A stretch of 28,026 nucleotides of DNA, from positions 9,330 through 37,355 of the forward strand of contig CAZFTV010000002.1 in assembly GCA_964521765.1 (NCBI GenBank), read 5' to 3'. The notes under the pieces are model-generated. The model was given only the letters and a program-made list of their open reading frames with translations. It was not told the DNA's origin and ran no database searches. The DNA is from an uncultured Eubacteriales bacterium (GTDB lineage Bacteria > Acidobacteriota > Aminicenantia > Aminicenantales > JAFGAV01). Below, piece after piece: positions 11,023-27,635 of the stretch (the first letter of the stretch is position 1; every line of letters starts with the position of its first letter). The position numbers and the translations under genes are program-made.

Positions 11023-12116
11023 AACTCGACATCCGCGTGGTTGTCATGGCCGGCGGGAGCGGCACGCGTTTCTGGCCGCTCAGCCGCGGAAGCCGGCCCA
11101 AGCAGTTTCTGCCCATCGCGGGCGAAAGGTCCATGCTGGAGGAGACCGTGGAGCGGCTCCTTCCGCTCGTTCCGGCGCGGAAGATTTTCACCGTGGCCGA
11201 TGCGGCCAAGACCCGGACGATCCGCCGGCTGCTCCCGGGATTCCCGGCCCGGAACCTCCTTGTCGAGCCCGAGGGCCGGAACACGGCGCCATCGCTCGTC
11301 CTGGCCACGGCGCGCATCCACCTGGACAATCCCGAGGCGGTCGTCGTCGTCCTACCCTCGGACCACCTCATCCGGCCGGCCGATCTCTTCCGGAGACAGC
11401 TCGAGGCCGGGTGCCGGGCCGCGGCCGAGCGAGGAGTCCTGGTCACCTTCGGCATCCCTCCCACGTTTCCCTCCACGGGCTACGGCTATATAAAAGCCGC
11501 GGCCAAACCCGCGGGCCGGGTCAATGGCTTCCCTTATCATGAAGTCCGGTCTTTCGAGGAAAAGCCGCCGCTCGAAAGAGCCCGCCGGTTCGTCCGCGCC
11601 GGGACCTACACCTGGAACTCGGGCATGTTCATCTGGCGGGCGGACGTCTTCGCCGGGAAGCTGAAAAGGCATTCTCCGGAGTACGCCCCCGGCTGGGACA
11701 GAATGCTCGCCGCTCTCCGGAAGGATGACCGTCGGGCGGCGAACGCCGCGTTCAAGACGATGCCGGCAAAATCCATCGACTACGCCCTTATGGAGAAGGC
11801 TTCCGGCGTGCTCGTCCTTCCGGCCCGTTTCGGCTGGTCGGACGTCGGCGCCTGGTCGTCGCTCCTCGACGTCTGGCCCCGCGACGAGCGGGGCAATACC
11901 GCGCGCGGCGAGATCCTGGCCCTGGATGCCTCGGGGAACCTCATTTACAACCCGGGCCGGTTCACGGCCCTGATCGGCGTCGATAATCTCATCGTCGTCG
12001 AGACGGGCGACGCCCTGCTCGTCTGCCGCCGCGACCAGGACCAGCGCGTCAAGGACGTCCTCGCGAATCTCAAGCGCCGCAAGAAGGGGTCGCGTCTACA
12101 CTTTCCACTTTTTTAA
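11019..12116 (+). CDS. manC: Mannose-1-phosphate guanylyltransferase, monofunctional (start re-assigned to ATG 11019)
   Basis: MAGGSGTRFWPLSR..PKQFL, EPEGRNTAP, PSDH, WNSGMF, SIDYALME, GWSDVGAW. No C-terminal cupin domain. ATGA overlap with the mutase. Confidence 0.93.
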   Translation: MKLDIRVVVMAGGSGTRFWPLSRGSRPKQFLPIAGERSMLEETVERLLPLVPARKIFTVADAAKTRTIRRLLPGFPARNLLVEPEGRNTAPSLVLATARIHLDNPEAVVVVLPSDHLIRPADLFRRQLEAGCRAAAERGVLVTFGIPPTFPSTGYGYIKAAAKPAGRVNGFPYHEVRSFEEKPPLERARRFVRAGTYTWNSGMFIWRADVFAGKLKRHSPEYAPGWDRMLAALRKDDRRAANAAFKTMPAKSIDYALMEKASGVLVLPARFGWSDVGAWSSLLDVWPRDERGNTARGEILALDASGNLIYNPGRFTALIGVDNLIVVETGDALLVCRRDQDQRVKDVLANLKRRKKGSRLHFPLF

Positions 12117-12229
12117 TCGGCCAACTTTCTGCCTCGAAATAAACCTCGCCGATCATTTGTGTCCCAGGATTTTCCGGGGCTCCTATTTGTCAAGCACTTA
12201 TGAATAGTGGAAAGTGTAGACGCGACCCC
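12086..12229. mobile_element. 144-bp MITE-like element with perfect 24-bp terminal inverted repeats
   Basis: GGGGTCGCGTCTACACTTTCCACT (12086-12109) and its exact reverse complement AGTGGAAAGTGTAGACGCGACCCC (12206-12229). The 96-bp interior has no ORF. Confidence 0.8.
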
Positions 12230-12241
12230 GTCTTCTATTGC

Positions 12242-14620
12242 CTAGTTATTCTCTTTCTTCTTCCGGGTTAATTCGAAACTCACCGTAACCGTTGAGGGGA
12301 TTCCAAGATGGCTTAAAAGGGTATCAATGCCGGTGGCAGCATAGAAGTTTTCAGAATCATGCGTTCCCTCAGATCCGTCACCCCTGAATGTCCTCGATCC
12401 GAAGATACCGTCTTTCGAAGCTTTTCCCGTGATAATGAAAGCGCCGCTCATTAAGCCGCGATAATCACAAGTTCCTATATGACCTTTGACATGATACACT
12501 CTTTCCTCTAACCAGTATTGAGGCATGGGATGGCGTTCACTTTCTCTGCAAACAGGCTTGCCGTTTTCGTAATCAATGTCGCGGAATGTCACGAGGCCCC
12601 CGGTTGGCGGGAGCAAGTGGATGTCAATGTATATCTGGTAGGTATCCTCTGCATCGACGGCCAGAGATACGTGCGCAAATGCCTTGCCGGGCACATGGGG
12701 AACGGATTCCCCCTCGGGCACCTTCTCCATAAGGCCGGAACCGCCAAAATCTGCCTGCTCGGTAACGCATCCTTCAGTTGTTGATGAGTAGCGATATTCT
12801 ATCAGGTTATAGGAACCGGAGAGAGATTGCATTTCATAATCAAATGCAGTCTCTTTGTTCTTTTCAAAGTCGACGATGATACGGACTCGCTCCTTGAAAG
12901 CCAATTTAATAGTATTATTGTCTATGCTGTGTTTGCCGTCGACGTCTCGGGTAAAGGTAATCGTGCCGGACCATTCACTGCATGGCTCGGAAGAAGGATC
13001 GATTTCAATCTTGCCGTCGAGGGTTGATTCGCTTCCATTGCTTACAATAAGCGTCAGGTTGACAAGTCTCTCATCAGCCTTGTCCAGGCAGAAGGTAATC
13101 TTGGACTCGCTGCTCCAGTGGCGCACCTCCGCACTTCTCCCTTCGATCGTGACAATGGCATCCACGCCGGCTCCAGGTCTGCTGATTATGTCCTCGAGAA
13201 CAACTGTTATCTTGTGAATGCCCTCGCCGACAGGGACACCGACATAGTAGTAACGGGCAGCGAGACGCTGAATAGGTTCGTCGATTGTCTCTTTTTTGTC
13301 TTTTGAAAGCTCGATTTCTTTTGTGAGTGAAGGGCTAAGATCGGGAAATTCCGGGTCAGGCTGCGAATAGGTCGGACTCACCGGCTCAAAGTTCCAGTTG
13401 CGGAGAGCAAATTCTCGGAAGTTGTCCTTGAGTGAAAAGACTGCATCGACGGCCTTAATGCCGTCTTTCGTCCTTGCGGACTCCCAGACCTGACGAACAA
13501 TACCGTCGTTTCTTTCCATCTGGGCAAAGAGAAAAAAAAGATATGAGCCGTATTGTTGTATCCTCACTCCTGAATATGCTTGGATGGACTCTCCTTTGCT
13601 GTCCAGGGGCTGATTGAGCGCATTGAAAAAGTACGGAAGAGTCCTATGCACATCCCCCAGATCATCTCCCAACATCTGCAAGACCCGGAATTCCGCCCAG
13701 GTAGCCGTTGCTTCCATCAGCCAACTGTTTTCCATTCGGTCATAGCTGAATTGGCTCACGTGGAACAGTTCATGAGCAAGGGTCCCGTTAAGGGAGCTGC
13801 CGCTGGCGGAGGAATCGATGACAACATATCCGCTCGAAGACAGAAAATCTTCCGGATCGCATGGGATAGCCCATCCAGATGCTCCAATGAAAGTGCATCC
13901 TTTGGTCGATCGGTTGCGCAGGCAGTCCCGCATACGGGGATTCCTCCCGCCCAGAGGCACAACATAAATATCAATGGCTTGGTCAGGGTTTATGAGTGAC
14001 GACGGGTCTCCTGGCTTATCCGGCAACGGTTCATTAATAAGGTTGATAAGAAGCGGCCAGATCGCTTCTACCCTGCCGGCATAGGTCAACGAGGCGTTTC
14101 TTGGATCGCGTCGCGTCCAGATTCTGACTTTGCCCCCAACCGCTGTCTCCGAACTCCAACCTTCATCCGCCCATAAAGCCGGAACCGCAGCGGCGAAATC
14201 AACATATCCCGATTGGGGTTTATTGAAGATGCTGATGGGATCGTTGGGGCGCGCCATGAAGGGTGCCAGTTCTTTGAGCGCAGATTGGCTCAGCTGATCC
14301 CTTTTTGCCTTGACCTCTGCAAAAATGACCGTAGCGGCATCCAGGTCTATGACATCCCTTTTATACTTCTCGGGCAAACGGGGATCACTGAATACCGCAT
14401 ACGTACGATAGAGCAAAGAAGTTTCATAATCGATCTCCTTTGCCGCCAGCGCTTTGGCGATGAGATCCTCGCTTGTGATAATTTGTTTGGTTTCGACCTT
14501 CTTTTGGGCTTTTGTTGATTCCTGTGGCTTAGGGCCAAACACTCCCTTCAACCAAAAGCCGATTGCAGCGAGAGCTATAAGAACGACAACCGCAACGATT
14601 GCATTTCGTATGCGTTTCAT
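12242..14620 (-). CDS. N-terminally membrane-anchored putative zinc metallopeptidase (HExxH...E), 792 aa
   Basis: Basic N-terminus plus hydrophobic segment (MKRIRNAIVAVVVLIALAAIGFWL), TLAHELFHVSQFSY followed by WLMEATATWAE (gluzincin-like third ligand), beta-rich C-terminus. AAGGAG RBS; AT-richer than the core genes. Confidence 0.7.
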   Translation of the reverse strand: MKRIRNAIVAVVVLIALAAIGFWLKGVFGPKPQESTKAQKKVETKQIITSEDLIAKALAAKEIDYETSLLYRTYAVFSDPRLPEKYKRDVIDLDAATVIFAEVKAKRDQLSQSALKELAPFMARPNDPISIFNKPQSGYVDFAAAVPALWADEGWSSETAVGGKVRIWTRRDPRNASLTYAGRVEAIWPLLINLINEPLPDKPGDPSSLINPDQAIDIYVVPLGGRNPRMRDCLRNRSTKGCTFIGASGWAIPCDPEDFLSSSGYVVIDSSASGSSLNGTLAHELFHVSQFSYDRMENSWLMEATATWAEFRVLQMLGDDLGDVHRTLPYFFNALNQPLDSKGESIQAYSGVRIQQYGSYLFFLFAQMERNDGIVRQVWESARTKDGIKAVDAVFSLKDNFREFALRNWNFEPVSPTYSQPDPEFPDLSPSLTKEIELSKDKKETIDEPIQRLAARYYYVGVPVGEGIHKITVVLEDIISRPGAGVDAIVTIEGRSAEVRHWSSESKITFCLDKADERLVNLTLIVSNGSESTLDGKIEIDPSSEPCSEWSGTITFTRDVDGKHSIDNNTIKLAFKERVRIIVDFEKNKETAFDYEMQSLSGSYNLIEYRYSSTTEGCVTEQADFGGSGLMEKVPEGESVPHVPGKAFAHVSLAVDAEDTYQIYIDIHLLPPTGGLVTFRDIDYENGKPVCRESERHPMPQYWLEERVYHVKGHIGTCDYRGLMSGAFIITGKASKDGIFGSRTFRGDGSEGTHDSENFYAATGIDTLLSHLGIPSTVTVSFELTRKKKENN

Positions 14621-14835
14621 TTCAGGCTCCTTAGGGTTCTGTTCGGTCTACTAATTGCTTCGGCCAAAAGGGCTTTCGAGTATTGAAGTGCTCGCTGACC
14701 TGCCCCCTAATATGGTACCAGCCCTCGAGCGATATTTTCAATCGCCGGACCCTCACCCGAAAACTGGTCCAGCCAAAAGTGAAGTTATTTGGCTTTGATT
14801 CAATGCATATTTATCCGCGAACCGGCTCGGTGTCA

Positions 14836-14874
14836 AGTCTCCGATCAAACTGTGGAGGCGAAGCACACGGCGGC
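14836..14874 (+). repeat. 39-bp direct repeat, copy 1
   Basis: AGTCTCCGATCAAACTGTGGAGGCGAAGCACACGGCGGC, identical to 17854-17892. Confidence 0.95.
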
Positions 14875-15674
14875 GGCCGTTGGTCATGATGAACTCGGCC
14901 GCCCGGCCGATTTTAAACCTTCACCCCACCTCCATTTCCTGGTGACCGAGGGTGGGGTGGACGAGGCGGGGATCTTCCATAAGATCCCCCAAATCGACGA
15001 CTTACAGCTTGAGGAGCTTTTCGCTCGGGAGGTGTTGTCCGATCTTGTGCGCAAAGAGTTGCTGATCCCGGAATGGACCGAGAGAGGATTCTATCCTGGC
15101 GGCACACAGGCTTCTCAGTCCATAGCTTGGTTCGGGCCACGACCAAGCCGGTGGCCGAGCGGGTGGGCAAATATATGATCCGGCCGCTCTTGGCCCTGGA
15201 CCGCCTTTCTTTCGTAGAGCCTGCGGGCAAGGTGGGATACCGATATGGCCAAGGCGCCCGCGAGACCGAGAAGATGGGTTATTTGGAGTTCATCGCGCGG
15301 GTCACCTCTCATATTCCCGATAAGGGCCAGGTCATGGTCCGCAACTATGGCCTCTACGCCAATGCTCATCGAGGGAAAATCAGGAAGGCGAGCTTGACGG
15401 CTTTTCCCCTCCGGATCGTCGAGGAAAAGCTTCGGCGCGTCCCCTCCAAGGGCTGGGGGCCATGATCCGGAAGGTCTACGAGATCGACCCGATGGTCTGC
15501 CTCCGGTGCGGTGGCACGATGAAGGTCGTCGCCTTCCTCACGGAGCACGTTGTCGTAGACCGGATCATCAGCCACATGAAGCTGATATTCATTGCCGACA
15601 AGCCCCCGCCGCCCCGGGCCGCCTTCCAGGAATATCTTCTAGACGCTGATCCCCAGGTCGATTATATTTTGTGA
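14875..15674 (+). pseudogene. IS91/ISCR-like rolling-circle (HUH) transposase remnant, 5'-truncated and frameshifted
   Basis: HUH motif PHLHFLVTEGG, then ERILSWRH.GFSV, KYMIRP, LEFIARVTSHIPDKGQVMVRNYGLYAN, and the tail MIRKVYEIDPMVCLRCGG.MK. Frameshifts: an extra AG in GAGAGAGG near 15081-15088 and a G-run at about 15455-15459. The N-terminal Zn-binding domain is absent. Confidence 0.88.
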
Positions 15675-15762
15675 GTGTTTTCAGGGGGGAAATGTTTGTC
15701 TGATTTCCGCCTCCTCGGGCGCCCCTGACGCTCTCCTGCTTTATCCCACAAATCAAGTCCTT

Positions 15763-15871
15763 CTTGACAGGTTCCAGACCCCCCTTGTGTATTCTCTTAT
15801 GATGATTGGAGGGGATTCCCGAGGTAATAACGTGTCTGCAAAGCGGCGCAGCAGAAAAAGAATTTCTTATC
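15763..15871 (+). repeat. IS91-like ori-end region, copy A (109 bp)
   Basis: Follows the transposase 3' end and finishes AAAAAGAATTTCTTATC, resembling IS91/ISCR oriIS termini (A/T-TTCCTAT-type, recalled). It aligns without gaps to the reverse complement of 16673-16781 at 77/109 positions. Confidence 0.7.
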
Positions 15872-16598
15872 AATTCTCAGAACGCACTACACGAACATAG
15901 GCGTCGTCGAAAAGAGGGATGCTGACTATATTACCTTCATCGAAGTAAACCACCCACGCATCGAATGGACCATATTGATCACCGGTCCACATATTCTCCT
16001 GAATTCCTATAAAGAGAGGGTCGATGTATAAGTAAAAATTCTTTTTGCTGCTCTCAATCAGCGATGCCCCCTCCTCTAGGGTTGGTAGTCGCCAGTCATG
16101 GTATCCTGCATATCCCTTCTGGTTTAAATTCTCAATCCAATTTCGAGCATCATCAAACGTCTTCCTATCTGAAGACGCCACATGCTGCCACATCAGCCCC
16201 GTGGCATGGTCATTGACAACCAGATCACTATTAATATATTTTCTCTCAAACTTGTTTTTAAACGTCTTTGATTTGTGCCACCTTGAATCATAAAACCCAT
16301 GTTTATTCAGCATGGATTCAACTTCATAAGTTGTCAGATTTTTATATTCGTAACGGAGTCGAGAAGTGGGAATATGAGTCCGAGATTCAAGTTTTGTTTC
16401 TGAAGTTTTATTTTCAAACAAGATGTTTGCTATTAATATAGTTGTTATTACTATTATTATAACTAAAGTTAAAATGAACCACTGTTTTCTAGTTCCGGGT
16501 ATTACAGTTAGCCTTCCTCCACATTTAGGACAGATTTTATAAGGACCACCTGATAGTGTTAAAAAAGGATTTCCACATTTGCTGCAGTGTTGTCCCAT
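15870..16598 (-). CDS. Zinc-ribbon + transmembrane + Lcl C-terminal (DUF1566) domain protein
   Basis: CSKC...CPKC at the N-terminus, TM WFILTLVIIIVITTILIANILF, and DUF1566 motifs VVNDHATGLMWQ, GYAGYHDWRLPTLEE, WVVYF..G and terminal VRVVR. Strongly AT-rich. Confidence 0.85.
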   Translation of the reverse strand: MGQHCSKCGNPFLTLSGGPYKICPKCGGRLTVIPGTRKQWFILTLVIIIVITTILIANILFENKTSETKLESRTHIPTSRLRYEYKNLTTYEVESMLNKHGFYDSRWHKSKTFKNKFERKYINSDLVVNDHATGLMWQHVASSDRKTFDDARNWIENLNQKGYAGYHDWRLPTLEEGASLIESSKKNFYLYIDPLFIGIQENMWTGDQYGPFDAWVVYFDEGNIVSIPLFDDAYVRVVRSEN

Positions 16599-16672
16599 TT
16601 TAAAACCTCTTTATTTCATAAAAAGACACGCCCAAGTTCTCAGGAAAGTCGAAGAGATTCTCTTATAATTTC

Positions 16673-16781
16673 GACAAGCATTTCCTTTTTGGCTGAGCCC
16701 CTTTGAAGCCGCGTAGTTTTCGCGGTCGTCCCCTCCCTCCATCGTGAGGGATTATAAAGGGAGGGGCGGGAACCTGTCAAG
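16673..16781 (-). repeat. IS91-like ori-end region, copy B (109 bp, inverted)
   Basis: The minus strand starts CTTGACAGGTTCC and ends CAAAGGGGCTCAGCCAAAAAGGAAATGCTTGTC. It is colinear with copy A (77/109 identical, no gaps). Confidence 0.7.
16751..16780 (-). promoter_or_regulatory. Consensus sigma70 promoter pointing at the DUF1566 gene
   Basis: The minus strand reads TTGACA-18 bp-TATAAT (both hexamers perfect), about 150 nt upstream of the ATG at 16598. Confidence 0.7.
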
Positions 16782-16785
16782 GACG

Positions 16786-17854
16786 TGAACAGGTCCACTA
16801 CATGGGCAACACTTTCCGTCTGGAGTTGCGTTTCCACTGCCGATAATATTGGTAAGGGGTCAAGTAATCAAGGGACTCGTGCGGCCGGATGCGGTTATAG
16901 GTGTGCTCCCACTCGGCCAGCTGCCGGGTTATGCTCCTCAAGGTCCAGGTCGACGTCGTAAACCTCATAGAGCTCCTCCCCGTGGGTTCGATTCGACCTC
17001 TCCACGTGCCCATTGAGTTTGGGAGACTTGGGCGGAAGGACGAAGAGAGGGATCTTCTTGGCTTGGCATTCCATCTCGAACTGGTCCTTGAACTCTGATC
17101 CGCCATCGATCTGGATGGCCTTGAGAGGAAGTGGGCCGCCTTGAGGCTCGACTGATGCTTATAAGCCCGGATCGCATCGAAACGGCAGACGACATCCCGT
17201 GCCGAGAACTGATATCGGGTCTCGTTGGGCAGGAGCTTGATCTGAACGGTATCGACTTCGACCAGGTCCCCGGGCGCCTCGATCCGATAGTCCTTAGGCT
17301 TCCTTATGGCATAGCGGGGCTTCCTCCGGCGCCTCCGGGCCAGCTTGGCCTGGGTCACGTTCAAGGGCTCGACTAGAACACCGCGGGCTTTGAGCCGGTT
17401 CATCACCCGGCCGACGGTCGAGGCCGAGACCTTGATCCCCTCCCGCCCCAGAAGGACAACCAACTTCTTCTTGCCCCAGCGGGGATATCGGGTCCGCAGT
17501 TCCAGGATCCGCTCCACGACCTCCAACGGCGTCTGAGGCTGTCGAACATGTCGGGGTCGCCGGCTCTCTTCCTCCAGGGTGGTCAGGTCATAAGGGTCGA
17601 ACCTCCGTTTCCAGCGGTAGAAGGTCTTGGGGGAGATGCCGAAGTATCGGCAACTGAGCCTGGCGTTCCGAAGACGGGCATAATGGTCCATCCAGCGGAG
17701 CTTCTTGGCCGCTTCAGCGGAGATCGTCCCCTGGCGGACCAGGGACCGGATGTACTCTGAACCTGGGATTAGGGAGCCGTAAGTCGTTGTCGCCCGTAAA
17801 TACATGGTGCCACCATATTACCCCAGGTGTTTCCCATGTTTCTGGACCTGTTCA
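16786..17854 (-). mobile_element. IS481-family insertion sequence (1069 bp), inactive
   Basis: Imperfect terminal IRs TGAACAGGTCCACTACATGGGCAACAC (16786-16812) and TGAACAGGTCCAGAAACATGGGAAACAC (reverse complement of 17827-17854) enclose one HTH + integrase-core ORF. No target-site duplication is visible. Confidence 0.8.
16798..17805 (-). pseudogene. IS481-family DDE transposase with two compensating frameshifts
   Basis: HTH segments (ISPKTFYRWKRR, PRWGKKKL, SASTVGRV), first Asp LVEVDT and tail YNRIRPHESL are in frame. KAIQIDGGSEF...NGHVER is present only in a shifted frame between about 17123 and 16927. Confidence 0.85.
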
Positions 17855-17892
17855 GTCTCCGATCAAACTGTGGAGGCGAAGCACACGGCGGC
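17854..17892 (+). repeat. 39-bp direct repeat, copy 2
   Basis: Identical to 14836-14874; abuts the IS481 end. Confidence 0.95.
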
Positions 17893-17904
17893 CGGGAGCG
17901 AACC

Positions 17905-17959: not shown

Positions 17960-18268
17960 ATGTTCGTCTGGGTCTTTCATCGCGTGACGGGTTTATTGCT
18001 CATCGGCTTCCTGGGCGTCAAGTTCCTGACGTCCTTCTTCCTCATGACCAAGAATGTCAAGCCCGACTGGGCGCTCTTCCTCCACACGAACCCGCTTATC
18101 GACGCGGTGCTCATCGTCAGCGTCGTTTACCACGCCCTCTACGGCTTGCGGACGGTCATCCTCGACCTGGGGCTGCGCCGCGAGAAGCTCCTGTTCTGGA
18201 TCTTCACCATCCTGGGCACCGTCATCAGCGCCGGCTTGCTCGTGCTCTATTTCACCCGGGATTACTGA
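17960..18268 (+). CDS. sdhC: Succinate dehydrogenase/fumarate reductase cytochrome b anchor subunit, 3 TM (alternative start 17930)
   Basis: WVFHRVTG at the start of helix 1, [16 protein letters not shown] (heme His and GLR..D motif) in helix 2, and a third hydrophobic helix. It precedes sdhA. Confidence 0.85.
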
Positions 18269-18429
18269 TGTCGGCCAGCGTATTCAAGCCCGCCGCTTCT
18301 TTCTTTTGCGCCGGAGAACAACGAGCTTTTTTCCTCCGGAGATTCCTTCCGGCGGAACCCGAAGCGCGTTCGCATGCGCGTGCACGAAGCGAAGGGCGCA
18401 GGGGCATGAAGGGGTCGGCCTCGCCATGA
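18268..18429 (+). other. 53-codon ORF or structured spacer between sdhC and sdhA
   Basis: The ATG overlaps the sdhC stop (TGATG) and the TGA overlaps the sdhA start (ATGA). The peptide is Arg-rich and non-TM, with atypical codons, so coding status is uncertain. Confidence 0.3.
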
Positions 18430-20126
18430 TCCGCCACGACATCCTGATCGTCGGCAGCGGCCTGGCCGGCCTCTCGGCGGCGCTCAGCGCCGACCCCAAG
18501 CTCTCGACGGCCGTCATCTCCAAGGTCCATCCCATCCGCTCCCATTCCGTGGCCGCCCAGGGCGGGGTGAACGCCGCGCTGGGAAACAACCCGGCCGGCC
18601 GCGACGACAACCCGGAGCGCCACGCCTACGACACGATCAAGGGCAGCGATTTCCTGGCCGACCAGGACGCGGCCGAGCTCATGTGCCGGGAGGCCGTGCC
18701 GGCCGTCCTCGAGCTCGAGCATCTGGGAGTGCCCTTCAGCCGGTTCCCGGGCGGCGTGATCGCCCAGCGGCCCTTCGGCGGCGCCGGGTTTCCCCGGACC
18801 TGCTACGCAGCCGACCGCACCGGCCAGGTCATGCTCCACACGCTCTTCGAGCAGGCCCTCAAGAACAACGTCAAGCTCTACAACGAATTCATGGTCACGA
18901 AGCTCGTCCTCAACCGCGGCCGCTGCTGCGGCGTCGTGGCCTACGCCTACGACCGGGGCGAGTTCCTGCCCATCCAGGCCCGGGCGGTCGTCTTCGCCGT
19001 GGGCGGCTACGGCCGCCTTTACCTGCGGACGACGAACGCCTATACCACGCTCGGGAGCGGGATCGGCCTCGCCTTCCAAGCCGGCCTGCCGCTCAAGGAC
19101 ATGGAGTTCATCCAATTCCATCCGACCTCGCTCTACGGCAAGAACATCCTCATCACCGAGGCGGCGCGCGGCGAGGGAGGGTATCTCCTCAACAACCAGG
19201 GCAAGCGGTTCATGGCCGATTACGCGCCCAAGGCCATGGAGCTCGCCCCGCGCGACATCGTCTCCCGGTCCATCCAGACCGAGATCGACCAGGGCCGCGG
19301 GTTCGAGAACGAGTACGTCCACCTCGACCTGACCCACCTCGGCCGCGAGAAGATCATGAAGCGGCTGCCGGCCATCCGCGAGATCTGCATCAAGTTCGCC
19401 GGCGTCGACCCCGTCGAAACGCCTATCCCCATCCAGCCGGCCCAGCACTACTCCATGGGCGGCATCGACGTCGGGAACGACTGCGCGACCGGGGTCAAGG
19501 GCGTTTTCGCCGCCGGGGAGTGTTCCTGCGTCAGCGTCCACGGCGCGAACCGCCTGGGCGGGAACTCGCTCCTCGAGACCGTGGTCTTCGGCAAGATCGC
19601 GGGCCGCTCGGCCTCGCGCTACGTCAAGGACGGCGGCGCGAGCCCGGCGGGCGCGGCCAAGGCCCTTGAGGAAGGCGTGCGAAAGGTCGAAAAGCAGGTC
19701 GAGGGATGGGAGAAGCGGAGCAAGGGCATCCCCATCCATCACCTCCTGCAGCGCATGAAGGTCCTGATGACCGCCAAGGCGGGGATCTTCCGCGACCGGA
19801 AGGGCCTCCGCGAGGCCGTGGACGACGTCCTCGAGATGCGCGAGGATTACAGGCGCGTCGTCCGCACCGGACGGAACCGCCGCTACAGCCAGGAGATCGT
19901 CAACATTTTCGAGTTTGAGCACTCGCTCGAGCTGGCCGAGGCCATCACCCGCGGCGCTCTCCACAGGGAGGAGACGCGCGGATCCCACTTCCGCACGGAT
20001 TTTCCCAAGCGGAACGACAAGCGCTGGCTCAAGCACACCCTGGCCTTCCTGAGGAACGGCAAGGTCGAGCTCGGCTCGAAGAAGGTGCGTTTCACGAAGT
20101 ACAAGCCCGAGGAGCGGAAATATTAA
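18426..20126 (+). CDS. sdhA: Succinate dehydrogenase/fumarate reductase flavoprotein (start re-assigned to ATG 18426)
   Basis: [18 protein letters not shown] (covalent FAD His), [52 protein letters not shown]. Confidence 0.96.
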
Positions 20127-20127
20127 G

Positions 20128-20853
20128 ATGAAATACACTTTCCGCGTCCTGCGCTTCGACCCGAAAAAAAACGAAAGCCCCCGCTTCCAGGATTACGTCT
20201 ACGAGCCGCGCGGGAAGACGACCGTCCTCGAAGCCCTGATGGACATCCGCAACGAGCAGGACTACGACCTCTCCTTCCGCTACAGCTGCCGGGAGGGCGT
20301 ATGCGGCTCGTGCGGCCTGGTCATCAACGGCCGCTTCGACCTCGGTTGCCGCACGATGCTCGACACGCTCGAGGCGGACACGGTCGTCCTCGAGCCGCTG
20401 CCCAACCTCGAGGTCAAGAAGGACCTGGTCGTGGACATGGAGCCATTCTGGAAGGCCCTGCGGGAGGTCGAGCCTTATCTCTTTCCGCCGGAGAAGGCGC
20501 CCAAGCGGGAGTTTCCGGTCGAGGACCGTGAAATGGAGAAGATCGACCAGTACGTCTCCTGCATCCTGTGCGCCTGCTGCTACGGCGCCTGCCCGGTTGT
20601 GGCGCGCGACGGGCGATACCTCGGGCCGGCAGCGCTGGCCAAGCTCAACCGCTTCGTCCGCGACCCGCGCGACCGGCGGCCGTTCCGCAACTGGGCGAAG
20701 GTCGACACCGAGGGGGGTGTCTGGGGCTGCGACACGGTCTTCCGCTGCAACGAGGCCTGCCCGCGCGAGGTCCGGCCGGCCGACGGCATTCAGGCGCTGC
20801 GGAGGACCATGACCTGGAACAAGATCAAGAGGATGTTCAAAAGAGTGCGATGA
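20128..20853 (+). CDS. sdhB: Succinate dehydrogenase/fumarate reductase iron-sulfur subunit
   Basis: [2Fe-2S] SCREGVCGSC...C, [4Fe-4S] CILCACCYGAC, [3Fe-4S]-type CDTVFRCNEACP, and VKKDLVVDM. Confidence 0.96.
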   Translation: MKYTFRVLRFDPKKNESPRFQDYVYEPRGKTTVLEALMDIRNEQDYDLSFRYSCREGVCGSCGLVINGRFDLGCRTMLDTLEADTVVLEPLPNLEVKKDLVVDMEPFWKALREVEPYLFPPEKAPKREFPVEDREMEKIDQYVSCILCACCYGACPVVARDGRYLGPAALAKLNRFVRDPRDRRPFRNWAKVDTEGGVWGCDTVFRCNEACPREVRPADGIQALRRTMTWNKIKRMFKRVR

Positions 20854-21299
20854 AACTCAAAGCCTCTCTTTTCTCCCGCCGCAAGTTCTTGAACGGCCTC
20901 CTGGCCGGAGGGTTGGGGTCGCTCTTCGCCTCCCTGCTTTTTCCCCTGCTGCGCTCTGTCATCCCGCCTACCAAGGAGCCGGACGAGGTGCGGCTGCCCG
21001 GGGCCGACTTCGACGGCATGGCGCCGGGCGAGGTCCGCGGGTTCTCCTGGGACATCAAGCCCGGCTTCCTGAAAAAGAAAGCCGACGGCGGATGGACGGC
21101 CTTCGTGGGCGTCTGCACTCACCTCGACTGCAACGTCTCCTATCTTGCGGCCGAGAAGAAGTTTTTCTGCGCCTGCCATGACGGCTGGTACGACGAAGAG
21201 GGCCGCAACATCGCCGGCCCGCCGCCCTCGCCGCTTCGGCGGCTGAGCGTGAGCGTCGAGGGCGCCGAGATCGTCATTAAGAAGGAGCCGCCGGCATGA
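20850..21299 (+). CDS. qcrA: Rieske [2Fe-2S] protein of a Rieske/cytochrome b complex (start re-assigned to ATG 20850)
   Basis: Tat motif SRRKFL plus TM anchor, box 1 CTHLDC, box 2 CACHDGWY, and GPPPSPL. ATGA overlaps on both sides. Confidence 0.9.
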   Translation: MKLKASLFSRRKFLNGLLAGGLGSLFASLLFPLLRSVIPPTKEPDEVRLPGADFDGMAPGEVRGFSWDIKPGFLKKKADGGWTAFVGVCTHLDCNVSYLAAEKKFFCACHDGWYDEEGRNIAGPPPSPLRRLSVSVEGAEIVIKKEPPA

Positions 21300-22547
21300 G
21301 CGCCGGGAGCCGTTGGACCGCCTTCCGCCGCTGGCTCGACGAGCGGCTGGGCCTTGAGGCCGTGCTGGGCTTCATGCGGCACAAGACCGTCCCCCGGAGC
21401 GGCCACACGATCTGGATGTACACCGGCAGCGCCATCCTGATTTTCTTCTTCATCCAGGTCGTGACCGGCATCATCCTGGCCTTCTACTACCGGCCGACTC
21501 TCGAGGAGGCGAACGCGAGCATCGCCCGGATCATGACCGACGTCCCCCTGGGCTGGGTCGTGCGCTCGATCCATTCCTGGTCGGCGACCTTCATGATCAC
21601 CTTCGTCTTCATCCACTTGGTCAGCATCTGGCTCCTCAAGTCCTACCGGAAGCCGCGGGAGCTGACCTGGATGAGCGGCGTGCTGCTCCTCTTCTGCTCG
21701 CTCTTCTTCGGGTTCACGGGCTACCTCCTGCCTTGGGACGGCGACCAAAGTGGGCACGGACATCCCGCGGGCCATACCCGTGGTGGGCGATTTCTTCACC
21801 AAACTGCTCCGCGGCGGCGAGGACGTGAGCGGCGAGACGCTCAGCCGCTTCTTCAGCATTCACATCTCGATCTTGCCCCTGGCGCTGTGTGCGGTGCTGG
21901 TCCTTCATGTTTTTCTCATTCAGAAGCTCGGGATGAGCATGCCGCTCGAGGCCGAGGTCAAGAAAAAACGACTGCCCGAGATCCCCTTTTGGCCCAACTT
22001 CGTCTTCCGAGAGGCGGTGCTGTGGCTCGTCCTCTTCGGCGTCCTTCTCAGCCTGGCCGTATTCCTGCCGCAGGGGCTGGGCCGCGCGGCCGATTTGCGC
22101 GCGCCCGCGCCCGAGGGCATCAAGCCGGAGTGGTATTTCCTGTTCCTCTTCCAGACGCTCAAGATCTTCCCGGCGAAAATCTGGTTCCTGAAAGGGGAGA
22201 CCCTGGCCGTGCTGGCCATCCTGGCCGGCGTCCTGTTCTTTTTCTTCATCCCCCTCATCGACAACAAGCCCGCCTCGCGCAAGGGGAAAATCCTGACCGT
22301 CGTCGCCTGGCTGGCCATCATCTACGCCCTGGCCATGTCGGCCTGGAGCCTGGCCGGGCCGAAGCCGGCGGCCGAGGCGGCCGGCTCGTCTCACGAGCTC
22401 GTTGCCGGGCCGCGGAACGCCGGGGAGCGGACAGGGATTTACGTCTTCCTGGCCTGGATGTGGAGCGCGATTATCTTTCTTGTTTTTGTGCTCCGGGCCA
22501 AGGTGAGCGAGGTCGACCGGCTCAACGACGCCGGTTTCTTCGATTGA
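21296..22547 (+). pseudogene. qcrB: Cytochrome b (unsplit b6+IV type) interrupted by a frameshift at 21740
   Basis: WLDERL, QVVTG, RSIHSWSA...IHL, RELTW.SG and GFTGYLLPWD are in one frame. ATKVGTDIP, RFFSIH...LH and KPEWYF are in the +1 frame from 21741. It may be a real pseudogene or a sequence error. Confidence 0.85.
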
Positions 22548-23560
22548 CACCCAAGCAGCGGATCGAATGCCTGCTCGCGGGGAAGCCCGCGGACCGCGTC
22601 CCCTTCTGCCCGGCCGTATACGAGCACAAGGCGGCGCTCGTCGGCGCGACTCCCTCGGAGCTCTGCCGCAACGCCGGGCTTTTCCTCAGGGCGCTCGAGC
22701 GCGAGGTTGAGCTCTACGAGCCCGACATCCTGACCGTCGGCTGCGACGTCTACAACGTCGAGGCCGAAGCCGCGGGCTGCCGGGTTGAGTATTTCGCCGG
22801 GAACGACGTGCCCGCCGTTGCGGCACACGCCGCGCGGCCGGGCGGCGACCTCTCCGGCTTGCGCCTGCCCGATCCCGAAAGAGACGGCCGTCTGCCGCTC
22901 CATCTTGAGGTCGGGTCGAAAGCCTTGCGGCGTTTCGGCGGGGAGAGGATTGTTCGGGGTGCGGTTTCCGGGCCTTTTTCCCTGGCCTGCTCCCTGGCCG
23001 GCGCGGAGGCCGTTCTGGCGGCGGCGCTCGAGGAGCCCGAATGGGTGAAGCGGCTGCTTTTCTTCGCTTCCGAGACGATCCGCTCCTACGGCCGCGCCCT
23101 TATCGAACGGGGGCTGGGGGTCGTGATCTTCGATTCTGCGGCTTCGCCGCCTCTCCTTTCGCCGCGTCTTTTCCGCGACCTGGTCCTTCCCGTTGCGGCT
23201 GGGATCGTGAAATACTTCCGCGAGGAACTCGGCGTTCCGCTCGTCCCCTACATCCTGGGCGGCGACACGTCATTGATCCTGGACGACATCCTCGCCGCGG
23301 GAACGAACAACATCCTGTGCGATTTCAGGGCGGATTTGGGGAGCTACGTCGAGCGGACGCTCGCGCTCCCCGTCCTGCTCCGGGCGAACCTCGACCCGGC
23401 GGTTCTTCTTTCAGGGACGGACGAGGAAATCCGTTCCAAAGCGCGCTCCCTCCTCGGGGCCGGCCGCCGCCACCCGCGCTTCATGCTCGGCACGGGCATC
23501 CTGGCCTACGACACGCCGCCCCGCGCCGTCCTCGCTGTCCGCTCGACGCTGGAGAGATGA
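22544..23560 (+). CDS. Uroporphyrinogen decarboxylase-superfamily (MtaA/CmuA-like) protein (TTG start at 22544)
   Basis: MTPKQRIECLLAGKPADRVPFCP, EAEAAGC, PDPERDGRLP, GAVSGPFSLAC, IFDSAASP, LRANLDP, DTPP. The supplied 754-aa ORF is a chimaera of the cytochrome b N-half, read-through, and this gene. TTGA overlap with the cytochrome b stop. Confidence 0.85.
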   Translation: MTPKQRIECLLAGKPADRVPFCPAVYEHKAALVGATPSELCRNAGLFLRALEREVELYEPDILTVGCDVYNVEAEAAGCRVEYFAGNDVPAVAAHAARPGGDLSGLRLPDPERDGRLPLHLEVGSKALRRFGGERIVRGAVSGPFSLACSLAGAEAVLAAALEEPEWVKRLLFFASETIRSYGRALIERGLGVVIFDSAASPPLLSPRLFRDLVLPVAAGIVKYFREELGVPLVPYILGGDTSLILDDILAAGTNNILCDFRADLGSYVERTLALPVLLRANLDPAVLLSGTDEEIRSKARSLLGAGRRHPRFMLGTGILAYDTPPRAVLAVRSTLER

Positions 23561-23612: not shown

Positions 23613-23641
23613 TTGACAAGAGATTCGCAGAGGCTTATCAT
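23613..23641 (+). promoter_or_regulatory. sigma70 promoter of the toxin-antitoxin operon
   Basis: TTGACA (23613-23618), 17 bp, TATCAT (23636-23641). Confidence 0.75.
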
Positions 23642-23696: not shown

Positions 23697-23969
23697 ATGG
23701 CCGAGTACTCTGAAATCGTGCCGTTGAGCCGGGCCAAGGCGCGGCTCTCGAGCCTCGTCCGCAAGGTCAGGGAGGAGCACGGGACTTATGCCATCACCCA
23801 TCGGGGGAAAGCCGAAGGGGTCCTGATGAGCGTCGAAGAATACGAGACGTTGATCGAGACCGTCGAGATCCTCAGCGACCGGCAGCTCATGGCCCGGGTC
23901 GACCGGGGGCTCCGTGACGAAAAGGCCGGGCGTCTTTTTTCCCACGACGAAGTCTTCCCGGAGAAATGA
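23697..23969 (+). CDS. Type II antitoxin, Phd/YefM family
   Basis: LSRAKARLSSLV...ITHRGKAEGVLMSVEEYETLIETVEILSD. GGGGAG RBS. Confidence 0.9.
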   Translation: MAEYSEIVPLSRAKARLSSLVRKVREEHGTYAITHRGKAEGVLMSVEEYETLIETVEILSDRQLMARVDRGLRDEKAGRLFSHDEVFPEK

Positions 23970-24268
23970 AAATCTCCGTTCACCGCGTCCTCTACACGAG
24001 GGAAGCGAAAAGGAATATCGACAAGCTCGACCCTTCCGTCAGGAGACTCGTCAGGAAAGCCGTCGAATCTTTGACCGTCGACCCGGAGAAGGGGAAATCG
24101 TTGTCCCATGAGCTGGCGGGGCTGCGGTCGCTGAGGACTTCGGACTACCAGATTGTCTATCGCGTCAGGAGCGGCGAGCTCGTCGTCCTGGTCGTGGCCG
24201 TCGGTCACCGCAGAGAGGTCTACAAACGGCTCGGGGAGCTGCTGAGCCTCGCGGTCAAGAACAGGTAG
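23966..24268 (+). CDS. Type II toxin, RelE/ParE family
   Basis: YTREAKRNIDKLD, GKSL...LAG.RSLR, YQIVY, VAVGHRREVY. ATGA overlap with the antitoxin. Confidence 0.88.
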   Translation: MKISVHRVLYTREAKRNIDKLDPSVRRLVRKAVESLTVDPEKGKSLSHELAGLRSLRTSDYQIVYRVRSGELVVLVVAVGHRREVYKRLGELLSLAVKNR

Positions 24269-24348: not shown

Positions 24349-25521
24349 TTATTTTTGCCTGTGGAGCACGATCTTGTAGGTCATCCAATCCTGAACGCTG
24401 CCCGTAACCGTGGTGCCGTCCTTCAAGGGCAAAGCCTCGCCTGAGATCTTGTATAGAAATTCCTTGGTGCCGAAGATCTGCGTATAGGACGCTTGCCCGA
24501 GGTAATATTTCAAGGGCTTGCAGCGAACGCATTCCTCCGGAAAATACTCGGGCCAGGTGAGCTTGACGGCGCCGGACTTGACCTGGCCGGCGATGGGCTT
24601 GCCGGTCAATTCCGTCAGGGACCGTCCGCCTATGGCCGACATTTTCTCGGCTTGCTTCCCGCCGGGGAGGAAGAAACACTGATACAGGTCCTGGAAATCA
24701 AAATAAATGGAAGCCGTGTAGCCCGCCGAAAAAACAGAGCCCTCATAGTAAGCGGGCGAGGCCTTGCCCCCGACGATATAGAATATCCCCGCCAGACTCC
24801 ATTCAAAGCCGACCATGACCGGCAATTTAGTATTCGGCGGCTTGAGGGCCTTGTTGGCGATGGGCGGCCGCAGCATGTCCTTCTCCACGCCGGTGACCAG
24901 GACGCGCCATTCTTCGATCTCGTTCAGCGTGAAGACCATGGCGCCCGAAATGACCGGGGAAACGGTGGGGAACTTGCTATAGTCGACAGTGCGCGTCGCG
25001 CCGTCCCTCATTTCGATATCCGTCACCGCGGGCGGGCCGGGCGCTACGGCCGCGGGGTCGAAGTTCAGCGTATAGGGCTCGGTGACGGTCCCCAGGGGCG
25101 CCGGGGCCTGAAACGATATCGTGCCCTTGAGCTCGATGGGTTTGGATTCGAACCAGAATTCAAGTTTTCCAGCCTTCACTGCGGCCGTGACCTTAAAATT
25201 TGCCTCCGGCGCTTCGGCGGGACCGATTTTAACCCCGGGGGATGGAGAGACTTGAGCGTCCGTGCGCACAGTCATTTTCCCGATCCCTTGCCATCGGCCG
25301 CCGCCCTCGGACAGCAGCCAGACTTCACCCTTGACCTTGGTGATGACGGAGGCCTGACCGTAGGGCCCGAGATTTAGCCCGCCGAGGCCGCCCTCGTACT
25401 TGAGGAGGACCCGTTCGACGCCTCTGGCCGGCGGAGGCCAAGCCAGGGTTATTTCCAATACGAACATCAACGCCACGGCTCCCCATATCCTGCCGTTCAA
25501 CAAACCGCGGCTTTTTCTCAT
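24349..25521 (-). CDS. Secreted hypothetical protein, 390 aa (start re-assigned to ATG 25521)
   Basis: AAGGAG precedes MRKSRGLLNGRIWGAVALMFVLEITLAWPPPARG (signal-peptide-like). The body is beta-strand-rich with no recognised family. Confidence 0.65.
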   Translation of the reverse strand: MRKSRGLLNGRIWGAVALMFVLEITLAWPPPARGVERVLLKYEGGLGGLNLGPYGQASVITKVKGEVWLLSEGGGRWQGIGKMTVRTDAQVSPSPGVKIGPAEAPEANFKVTAAVKAGKLEFWFESKPIELKGTISFQAPAPLGTVTEPYTLNFDPAAVAPGPPAVTDIEMRDGATRTVDYSKFPTVSPVISGAMVFTLNEIEEWRVLVTGVEKDMLRPPIANKALKPPNTKLPVMVGFEWSLAGIFYIVGGKASPAYYEGSVFSAGYTASIYFDFQDLYQCFFLPGGKQAEKMSAIGGRSLTELTGKPIAGQVKSGAVKLTWPEYFPEECVRCKPLKYYLGQASYTQIFGTKEFLYKISGEALPLKDGTTVTGSVQDWMTYKIVLHRQK

Positions 25522-25952
25522 GATGCGCTCCTTCCCCCACTCGATAGCCGTAACTCCCTGAAGAAAGGCCCATTCTAAATTAATCATCATTCCGCGGCAA
25601 TACGGATCATCACTCCGGACGGCGAAGAGGCCTTTCCGATTATCAATGTCCGTCGGGGCCGACCTCTGGCTGATGTTGTCTCGCTTATTAAAGAAGAGGA
25701 CGGTTTTGGAGTGCGGCCGCATAAGGCCAGCCTCAGACGCCTTCTTGTCATAATGAATTAGCCCCTCCGCCTCCCCGAGGGAATTCGGGGAGAGCTCGAG
25801 GGCGTCTTCGGAAGGGTCGGCGGCCGACGCGTCGCCGCTCCGAAGACCGGTCTTCCCGTTGGAATTCGGGAACATCCCGATGTCGTTTTCGGAAAGGCCG
25901 ATCGGGCATGCGATTTTCCCGCCGGTCGGCGCGTCCTATTCCCTGAGGCGAT

Positions 25953-26888: not shown

Positions 26889-27635
26889 ATGATCGAGCGT
26901 CGAGAGAGAAGCCTGACCTTGCGAGAGCTGGCGTCCCGGCGCGGGAAATCCCGCCGGGAGTTCCTGAGGACCGCCGCAGGCGGAATGGCCGGGGCGCTCA
27001 TCGCCGGCCGCTTTCTGGTCAGGGCTCTCTACGCCCATCCGTCTCCGGCCCAAGGGCAGGCCCAGGCCCAAGAGGAACAGGTCGTCTTTTCCATGATCGT
27101 CGTTGACTTTAACAAATGCACGGGCTGCCGGACCTGCGAGACCGTCTGCTCTTCCTTTAATAACAGGGTCGCCGTGAACGGCAAAGAGCTTCCGGGCCTG
27201 GGAAACCCGGCTTTATCGAATATCCGAGTATATCCCTACAATCCGGACGTCGATGTCCCCGTCACCTGCTTGATGTGCGAGGACGCGCCCTGCATCGCAG
27301 CCTGCCCGGTCGAGCCGGACCCCCGGACAGGGCGCCGGGCGCTCTATAGGGAAGGGCGGCTTCCGGTCCTGCGCAACGACCTCAGCCGCTGCATCGGCTG
27401 CGGCTCCTGCGCCGAGGCCTGCCGGACGGCGCGCGTAGGCGCGATCATCCCCAATCGCGAGACCAACAAGCCGGAACGGATGTGCACCCTTTGCGGCGGG
27501 AATCCCCAGTGCGTCCTCTACTGCCCTAACGGCGCCTTGAGTCATGTCGTTCAAGGATTGCCCGGCCAGCACTACGGGCTTTCGCCCGACTCCGCGGCCA
27601 AGCTGCTGATGGATCTCTGGTACGGGAAGCACTAG
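26889..27635 (+). CDS. Four-[4Fe-4S] electron-transfer subunit with a Tat signal, partner of the aldehyde:ferredoxin oxidoreductase
   Basis: SRREFL plus hydrophobic stretch, then CTGCRTCETVC, CLMCEDAPCIAACP, CIGCGSCAEAC, CTLCGGNPQCVLYCP. GGGAGG RBS. Confidence 0.88.
   Translation: MIERRERSLTLRELASRRGKSRREFLRTAAGGMAGALIAGRFLVRALYAHPSPAQGQAQAQEEQVVFSMIVVDFNKCTGCRTCETVCSSFNNRVAVNGKELPGLGNPALSNIRVYPYNPDVDVPVTCLMCEDAPCIAACPVEPDPRTGRRALYREGRLPVLRNDLSRCIGCGSCAEACRTARVGAIIPNRETNKPERMCTLCGGNPQCVLYCPNGALSHVVQGLPGQHYGLSPDSAAKLLMDLWYGKH

Follow-up and report, generated by a model that had tools for sequence, protein, structure and literature searches.

A gene unit conserved in Candidatus Aminicenantes joins a succinate dehydrogenase with a single SdhC anchor to a Rieske/cytochrome b pair

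The DNA analysed here is a 28,026-nt stretch (positions 9,330 to 37,355 of contig CAZFTV010000002.1, GenBank assembly GCA_964521765.1; hereafter the window) from an uncultured bacterium placed by GTDB in the Aminicenantales. It carries genes for a succinate dehydrogenase (SDH, complex II), followed by genes for a Rieske iron-sulfur protein, a cytochrome b and a protein of the URO-D superfamily. We assigned gene identities by Pfam and NCBIfam profile searches of the window proteins (Table 1). A preliminary description of the locus, made from the sequence, had proposed that sdhC, a small open reading frame (ORF) named orf53, sdhA, sdhB, and the Rieske, cytochrome b and URO-D-like genes form a single operon. 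The junctions are as it listed them: a 1-nt gap between sdhA and sdhB, ATGA overlaps at both sdhB/Rieske and Rieske/cytochrome b, and a TTGA overlap between cytochrome b and the URO-D-like gene. Scans for promoters and terminators gave nothing convincing within the sdh-Rieske/cytochrome b unit. Comparison with related loci bears out a conserved, tight unit of sdh and Rieske/cytochrome b genes, but neither orf53 nor the URO-D-like gene is a member of it.

Table 1 Features of the sdh-Rieske/cytochrome b locus, in window coordinates
Feature	Position	Strand	Basis or remark
sdhC	17930 or 17960..18268	+	Pfam Sdh_cyt; 112 aa from ATG 17930, 102 aa from ATG 17960
Non-coding spacer between sdhC and sdhA (157 nt)	18269..18425	+	Site of orf53 of the preliminary description
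sdhA, flavoprotein subunit, 566 aa	18426..20126	+	FAD_binding_2, Succ_DH_flav_C, TIGR01812
sdhB, iron-sulfur subunit, 241 aa	20128..20853	+	Fer2_3, Fer4_8, NF004616
Rieske [2Fe-2S] protein, 149 aa, twin-arginine signal-anchor	20850..21299	+	Pfam Rieske, TM_PetC
Cytochrome b, N-terminal part (helices A-C)	21296..21739	+	Pfam Cytochrome_B positions 11-121 of 189, 7e-32
Site of 14-nt deletion in cytochrome b	21739..21741	+	DNA alignment, 81 relatives
Cytochrome b, C-terminal part, in another frame (helices D-G and fused extra helix)	21741..22547	+	Cytochrom_B_N_2, Cytochrome_B 128-188, Cytochrom_B_C
Segment homologous to small single-helix subunit, fused to cytochrome b	22353..22547	+	Alignment to relatives
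URO-D superfamily protein, 338 aa, TTG start	22544..23560	+	Pfam URO-D 1.5e-44

The evidence for the unit comes from its conservation. A scan of a genome collection with one genome per species gave 240 stretches that encode a relative of the Rieske protein, from which we examined the best 80, together with four loci found by exact look-up (84 loci in all). Four more contigs lie beyond the 84, and searches with SdhC or the URO-D-like protein also led to loci with this unit (L085-L089). Every search yielded nearest matches only, all of them from Aminicenantes, and the conservation counts given here cover that group. The order sdhC-sdhA-sdhB-Rieske-cytochrome b is conserved in 84 of 84 loci found through the Rieske protein and in the four additional contigs, all from Candidatus Aminicenantes, with sdhC, sdhA and sdhB directly upstream of the Rieske gene in every locus whose contig extends far enough. 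The juxtaposition of sdhAB with Rieske and cytochrome b genes, whose recurrence the preliminary description had put forward as a check, is thus not peculiar to this genome or its assembly. The sdhB and Rieske genes overlap by 4 nt (ATGA) in 79/84 loci, the Rieske and cytochrome b genes by 4 nt in 69/84, and sdhC and sdhA are separated by 0 or -1 nt in 54 of the 71 loci scored. Order and 4-nt overlap hold down to about 57-60% protein identity, while the flanking genes all vary. When flanking ORFs of at least 110 aa were clustered, SdhA, SdhB, Rieske and cytochrome b were near-universal (77-81 loci), and the next commonest neighbours were RadC (41 loci) and formate-tetrahydrofolate ligase (FTHFS; 29 loci). 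The association of sdh with Rieske/cytochrome b genes is one-to-one in every locus, whether it was reached from Rieske, SdhC or URO-D.

An exact look-up of the window's Rieske protein returned no record; its homologues carry the names Candidatus Aminicenantes or Acidobacteriota. Some nucleotide records are titled otherwise. L023 (DATKXS010000144.1) is titled Candidatus Desulfaltia (Desulfobacterales), and many loci with CAZ* or CAY* accessions are titled 'uncultured Eubacteriales bacterium'. All have the Aminicenantes-type operon and group with Aminicenantales in a tree of SdhA plus SdhB, and these records are probably mislabelled or mis-binned.

Two genes that might be expected beside the unit, and that the preliminary description had noted as absent from this locus, are consistently missing from the unit itself and from its flanks to ±8 kb. 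When the 4685 ORFs in 1.13 Mb around the loci were searched with a hidden Markov model of SdhC, each locus gave exactly one match, and no second, sdhD-like Sdh_cyt ORF lies within ±8-10 kb of 73 loci. Similarly, among ORFs within ±8 kb of the related loci no conserved neighbour carries a CxxCH motif, and hence none qualifies as a c-type cytochrome subunit of the c1, f or dihaem c kind. Complex II enzymes have been sorted into classes A-F, in which the anchor consists of subunits C and D (with or without F), of one subunit with five or six transmembrane helices, or of SdhE/F (PMC10238741). What the Aminicenantes loci encode instead is one SdhC of 102-112 aa with three transmembrane helices, standing alone within ±8-10 kb of the 73 loci.

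SdhC matches Pfam Sdh_cyt at 5.4e-9, with a weaker match to CybS, and reaches neither the SdhC nor the SdhD cut-off of NCBIfam. In relatives, its length is usually that of the 102-aa form that starts at ATG 17960. The nearest solved sequence is SdhC of M. smegmatis Sdh2. An AlphaFold2 model of the window protein (pLDDT, the predicted local distance difference test score, 94.6) folds into three membrane helices, with another, short helix in its outer loop; the top Foldseek matches of this model are SdhC of 6LUM (TM-score 0.77) and SdhC of E. coli (0.73), with SdhC chains fitting better than SdhD chains. Across 30 homologues, H17/R18, H52 in the outer loop and H68 in helix II are invariant. The protein therefore combines an SdhC fold with the conserved helix-II histidine, His68, that is the putative haem ligand. 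The most conserved stretch of the protein is the outward-facing loop (FFLMTK..KPDWALLLHTNP; residues 36-58, window 18035-18100), which may be a distal haem site, a quinone site or a protein contact. All seven SdhC homologues that are listed with a name by NCBI (P0137, P0139, P0177, P0199, P0223, P0235 and P0240) are called 'hypothetical protein'; automated metabolic reconstructions may consequently report an anchor-less complex II in this group.

The two catalytic subunits are readily recognised. SdhA matches FAD_binding_2 (3e-112) and Succ_DH_flav_C (3e-36), scores 750 bits against TIGR01812 (cut-off 567), and has a readable RSHS motif for covalent attachment of flavin adenine dinucleotide (FAD); it is a flavoprotein subunit by these measures, and matches neither the 'forward' SdhA model nor the FrdA model above cut-off. 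SdhB scores 253.5 bits against NF004616 (cut-off 228) and has the three conserved cysteine motifs of an iron-sulfur subunit (CxxxxCxxC...C, CxxCxxCxxxCP and CxxxxxCxxxCP). Its nearest solved structures are mitochondrial SdhB, that of M. smegmatis Sdh2, and E. coli SdhB/FrdB.

The Rieske protein has conserved motifs SRRKFL, CTHLDC (C89-T-H91-L-D-C94) and CACHDGWY (C107-A-C109-H110), which provide the CxH...CxxH cluster ligands, the disulfide cysteines and the twin-arginine translocation (Tat) signal-anchor, in agreement with its Pfam Rieske and TM_PetC matches. The second box, CACHDGWY, has glycine at the position of the bc1 serine, which, by analogy with bc1 mutants, suggests a cluster of lower potential. 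In cytochrome b, the window sequence and an alignment to 78 relatives identify four haem histidines, a PEWY motif and a spacing of 14 residues between the helix-D histidines. The N-terminal part, which contains both helix-B haem histidines and ends in ...GYLLPWD, is 93% identical to that of L085; the helix-D histidines and PEWY belong to the C-terminal part. The cd-loop motif is PWD.LSL.ATKV, where the usual cytochrome b motif is PW(G/D)Q.S.W, and the residues after the second helix-D histidine are b6-like (IQKLG, compared with IRKQG in cytochrome b6), with no obvious decay. Consistent with this, the closest solved relative is a cytochrome b6 (1Q90_B, 9e-56), although the score against NF002990 (208 bits) is below the cut-off of 325. 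The cysteine that would bind haem ci, defined by a CxGG motif (PMC5600118), is replaced by tyrosine in the aligned sequence W-M-Y-T-G-S.

The preliminary description had also noted an additional hydrophobic helix at the C terminus of cytochrome b. This helix is present in the window, but elsewhere it is mostly the product of a separate gene. Cytochrome b of most relatives is a seven-helix protein of 351-361 aa, with its stop codon overlapped by a small gene of about 100 aa. The small protein combines a hydrophobic N-terminus and a polar linker with a highly conserved segment that includes one membrane helix (EKI(V/I)P.P.NIKE...IYVF.GWMW...VLIY.LRLKIKE.DRL). It matched no Pfam family above cut-off, and a haem motif is absent from the sequences as read. 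Among 73 genomes, the small subunit is separate in 64 and fused to cytochrome b in 9. The fused forms occur in the clade of the window and, separately, in L023, L027 and L052. In a neighbour-joining tree of SdhA plus SdhB, these two groups are not sisters, and each is sister to split forms. Fusion on two independent occasions speaks for the small protein being a cytochrome b complex subunit.

Cytochrome b, a single gene in the preliminary description, is frameshifted in the window. The reading frame is lost after ...LLPWD (21739) and resumes in another frame at ATKVGTDIP (21741), so that Pfam Cytochrome_B positions 11-121 are matched in one frame and 128-188 in another, with positions 122-127 missing. 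The two conserved blocks are separated by 15 nt in 81 of 81 relatives and by 1 nt in the window, indicating a deletion of 14 nt. Alignment of the DNA with that of L006 gives a clean 14-nt gap, GGGACG[CGCTCTCCCTCTCG]GCGACC. The deletion removes five codons of the Qo-site region, (D/E/A)LS(L/F)(S/A), that are present in all relatives. Thus, the characteristic motifs lie in two halves, and with the sequence as given, translation from the start of cytochrome b does not reach the second half in its frame; none of the 81 relatives shows this interruption. In the 754-aa ORF at 21296-23560, the N-terminus of cytochrome b continues through 267 out-of-frame codons into the URO-D frame; a gene caller could report this chimera as one protein. 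Eleven other window genes are uninterrupted when compared with L085, and a relative-rate test of whether selection on Rieske and cytochrome b is relaxed in this lineage detected no lineage-specific excess of substitutions (3 vs 1, 1 vs 0 and 9 vs 6). Metagenomes were scanned both for the junction left by the deletion and for near-identical strains with either allele, with 0 matches. Given the uninterrupted genes and the lack of a substitution excess, the lesion is either very recent or an isolated assembly error. We conclude that the Rieske/cytochrome b half of the unit has been either freshly inactivated in this genome or mis-assembled.

The URO-D-like gene had been expected to be a constant companion of the unit. 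It lies directly downstream only in the sub-clade of the window and is absent within 8 kb in about 75 loci. In L085, L087 and L089, an intact cytochrome b of 426-427 aa is followed by 128-147 nt of intergenic sequence and then by the URO-D-like gene; the same 147-nt gap precedes the gene at the edge of a short contig, L092, where the upstream ORF is presumed to be cytochrome b. In L011, L027 and L052, the gene is about 3.5 kb away, beside radC, and in L081 it is about 3.7 kb away, radC not being found within that contig. Compared with these relatives, the window has lost about 175 nt between the two genes. This window-specific deletion took the ~10 codons at the 3' end of cytochrome b, which now terminates at a stop codon within the TTGAC start of the URO-D-like gene. 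The TTGA overlap, which had been read as translational coupling, is therefore a product of the deletion. Directly after the cytochrome b stop, L085 (14512-14560), L087 and L092 have an 8-bp GC hairpin (CCGGGCGT...ACGCCCGG), with the stem kept and the loop different in L092; its tail is A-rich rather than T-rich, and it is deleted in the window. The hairpin may mark the 3' end of the operon transcript.

The URO-D family is common in Aminicenantes. Like MtaA/CmuA and HemE, the window protein has a full-length URO-D domain, and its best solved relatives are MtaA 4AY7 (1e-17) and HemE 4EXQ (3e-15). It is assigned to neither family: it scores 42.8 bits against TIGR01464 for HemE (cut-off 303) and 105.7 bits against TIGR01463 for MtaA/CmuA (cut-off 235.4). 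A tyrosine and a histidine of UroD chain 4EXQ, both regarded as catalytic, align to Ser and Thr, and HIC of MtaA chain 4AY7, presumably the zinc-binding HxC motif, aligns to YIL. We conclude that the URO-D-like gene is a bystander, a lineage-specific neighbour rather than a conserved member of the operon.

Between sdhC and sdhA, the preliminary description had placed a further gene, orf53 (18268-18429). We find that this is not a gene: the product has no Pfam match and no transmembrane helix, and it is not conserved where a spacer exists. L001 and L003 also have ORFs here, but their protein products are unrelated, and the spacers themselves align poorly, with many indels. The closest relatives do not have the spacer at all, sdhC and sdhA being 18 nt apart in L085 and without a gap in L087 and L089. 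The possibility that orf53 encodes a small SdhD-like subunit is ruled out by the missing helix, the lack of conservation and its absence from the closest relatives. We also rejected a structured RNA, since the window spacer matches nothing in Rfam and the folding z-scores of -1.0 (window), +0.4 (L001) and -4.4 (L003) do not agree with one another. No repeat copy of the window spacer was found elsewhere. A different sdhC-sdhA spacer of about 184 nt occurs in L003 (7387-7570), L028 and L020; in L003 its predicted folding energy is -91 kcal/mol (z = -4.4, with 0/200 shuffles as good), and it may be an inserted palindromic element.

The constituents of the unit have clear counterparts among known enzymes. 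With the classical succinate:quinone oxidoreductases (class A, M. smegmatis Sdh2, 6LUM; class C, E. coli and mitochondrial complex II) it shares SdhA with covalent FAD, SdhB with the cysteine motifs for [2Fe-2S], [4Fe-4S] and [3Fe-4S] clusters, and a three-helix SdhC with the HR motif and the helix-II histidine, and these enzymes give the best matches in both sequence and fold. It differs from them in having one three-helix anchor gene with no SdhD or SdhF equivalent beside sdhC, and in the overlap of sdhB with the Rieske gene. The petCB genes of green sulfur bacteria, which encode a menaquinol:cytochrome c oxidoreductase, likewise consist of Rieske and cytochrome b without a c-type gene, a likeness taken from the published description; there is no c1 gene, and the partner, cytochrome c-556, is encoded elsewhere (PMC10172866). 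This provides a precedent for the missing cytochrome c gene of the Aminicenantes unit. Long fused forms of cytochrome b are also found in both (PMC5600118). However, the Aminicenantes pair sits downstream of sdhCAB, and its cytochrome b usually has seven helices and is followed by a separate small subunit. Cytochrome b6f and the Firmicute-type b6 have a similar four-helix N-terminal part, the 14-residue helix-D spacing and a PEWY motif in the subunit-IV-like part; in the Aminicenantes protein, by contrast, the b6 and subunit-IV-like parts are fused and the haem ci cysteine is missing (MYTGS), and the unit has no genes for cytochrome f, a dihaem c or PetG/L/M/N. Finally, the Rieske/cytochrome b clusters of anammox bacteria (Kuenenia) and the Nap-linked cluster of Caldithrix are also joined to another redox enzyme and also have no classical c1 (PMC5600118, PMC5317091). 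In Aminicenantes, the partner is complex II, and the unit lacks NAD(P)-binding, HAO and Nap genes. The preliminary description did not recognise the gene set from described systems, and full-text literature searches likewise gave no description of an sdh-Rieske/cytochrome b operon. Both enzymes are thus of known kinds; what appears to be undescribed is the joining of their genes across the class, the anchor with a single SdhC gene, and the additional small subunit.

On balance, we think that the unit encodes two enzymes of known kinds that are produced together: a succinate:quinone oxidoreductase with a single SdhC, and a Rieske/cytochrome b quinol oxidase without a cytochrome c of its own. 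The three-helix SdhC is the only encoded anchor, and would most likely form a homodimer that holds haem through the invariant His68. Electrons would then pass from succinate to FAD and through three iron-sulfur (Fe-S) clusters to (mena)quinone. The Rieske/cytochrome b complex, together with the small subunit, would re-oxidise the quinol through a Q cycle, with electrons passing from quinol at the Qo site to the Rieske cluster on the outer face, and from there to an acceptor in the periplasm whose gene would lie elsewhere. With menaquinone as the quinone, the oxidation of succinate is uphill, and tight co-production of a quinol-consuming enzyme would make sense; co-expression, and possibly proximity, would keep menaquinol low and so pull the uphill step from succinate to menaquinone.

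Several observations weigh against this proposal. The cytochrome b of the window is itself broken, and we infer co-transcription of the unit from its sequence. A single three-helix anchor matches none of classes A-F (PMC10238741). The homodimeric SdhC anchor is hypothetical, and an sdhD gene could lie elsewhere in the genome, since our search for it covered the flanks. We identified no acceptor for the Rieske protein. The quinone is likewise uncertain, given a PEWY motif alongside a Rieske box, CACHDG, that looks low-potential: Kao and Hunte are said to have found in 2014 that PEWY at the Qo site is more usual with ubiquinone or plastoquinone. Finally, ATGA-type overlaps also join unrelated genes, such as parB/bactofilin/kdsB in the window and kdsB/pyrG in L086, so the argument for a unit rests on conservation and not on the overlaps. 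Such overlaps are what one would also expect to see if synteny were conserved without functional coupling, the loci specifying two ordinary complexes that share a promoter, with sdhD and an equivalent of cytochrome c1 elsewhere. In green sulfur bacteria, cytochrome c-556 is an example of a partner with its gene elsewhere (PMC10172866), and published genome reports on Aminicenantes simply list complexes I, II and III. We nevertheless consider this explanation rather improbable, because the association is one-to-one in every locus, whichever protein started the search, and because gene order and the -4 overlap are kept to ~57-60% identity while the flanks vary.

At the other extreme, the two enzymes might form an obligate II-III supercomplex, a refinement of the hypothesis put forward in the preliminary description. 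SdhAB and SdhC would dock on the cytochrome b dimer and the small subunit, which would replace SdhD, and a shared quinone pocket or a direct haem-to-haem path would make the operon one succinate:acceptor oxidoreductase. Such an arrangement would accommodate the lack of sdhD within ±8 kb of the 73 loci, where there is also no room for it between sdhC and sdhA, as well as the class-wide overlap of sdhB with the Rieske gene. It would also fit the outer loop of SdhC, whose place as the most conserved part of the protein, with an invariant histidine, is unusual for a loop free of contacts, and the unusually conserved helix and conserved cytoplasmic KIKE.DRL tail of the small subunit. However, these arguments are drawn from sequence, the SdhC fold is ordinary, and a homodimer accounts for the missing SdhD more simply; moreover, the fusions tie the small subunit to cytochrome b and not to SDH, and complex II is missing from all respirasome structures except one (PMC10238741). 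We therefore regard an obligate supercomplex as unlikely, if somewhat less so than synteny without coupling. Least likely of all is a reverse or bifurcating mode, in which the enzyme would be a quinol:fumarate reductase and the low-potential b-haems would feed SdhC, SdhB and fumarate instead of the Qi quinone. It would echo an early scheme of Mitchell's, in which SDH is said to act at centre N. The organisms come mostly from anoxic habitats and genes for an aldehyde:ferredoxin oxidoreductase and a Tat ferredoxin lie nearby; SdhA is below the cut-offs of 'forward' SdhA and FrdA models alike, and Rieske/cytochrome b clusters of anammox bacteria include cytoplasmic flavin/Fe-S oxidoreductases (PMC5600118). 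Against these stand the closeness of SdhB and SdhC to succinate-oxidising enzymes, the high-potential acceptor that the Rieske cluster would still require, and the b6-like, undecayed region after the second helix-D histidine. Taken together, this leaves the reverse, fumarate-reducing mode very improbable.

Complex II is almost never found in supercomplexes, and here a whole class couples its last gene to Rieske/cytochrome b. The two co-produced enzymes that we propose would be a natural test case for the existence of a homodimeric, possibly ancestral, SDH anchor, for how succinate oxidation is driven with low-potential quinones, and for whether association of complexes II and III can be obligatory. 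With this unit, the range of known Rieske/cytochrome b enzymes is extended by a new combination of modules and a new small subunit. A hard-wired II-III machine, with a single SdhC set against the cytochrome b dimer and small subunit in place of SdhD, is doubtful; if it did exist, succinate would be oxidised straight to the periplasmic acceptor, via a private quinone or a haem-to-haem path and the Q cycle, and the machine would be without prokaryotic precedent as a II-III supercomplex and add a seventh architecture to those of complex II.

Upstream of the unit, the window carries origin-proximal housekeeping genes (mnmE, mnmG, parAB, bactofilin, kdsB, pyrG, kdsA, kdsD, PGM and ManC). Between ManC and sdhC lies an island of low GC content (window 12000-17900; 0.43-0.55, compared with 0.60-0.68 elsewhere), which includes a 792-aa ORF without a Pfam match (12242-14620, - strand), IS91-type Y2_Tnp fragments (15073-15465), a gene whose product has an Lcl_C domain (15870-16598, - strand) and, at 16798-17805 on the - strand, a transposase ORF that matches HTH_32 and, only in part, rve_3. 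Genes at this position differ among relatives. Homology to L085 begins just 26 nt upstream of sdhC, and the native promoter region may thus have been displaced.

Downstream of the URO-D-like gene, genes for a Phd/YefM antitoxin (23697-23969) and a ParE toxin (23966-24268) share an ATGA overlap. The sole sigma-70-like promoter match of the region (23613-23641) lies ahead of the antitoxin gene, and the pair was not seen at the equivalent position in L085, L087 or L089. A 508-aa ORF without a Pfam match (24349-25875, - strand) separates the toxin-antitoxin pair from radC. Beyond radC are a gene (26889-27635) whose product has 4Fe-4S ferredoxin motifs and an N-terminus of twin-arginine type and, from about 27645, the N-terminal part of an aldehyde:ferredoxin oxidoreductase gene (AFOR_N, 5e-31) that runs off the window. 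L089 has a similar Fer4 gene in the same place after radC.

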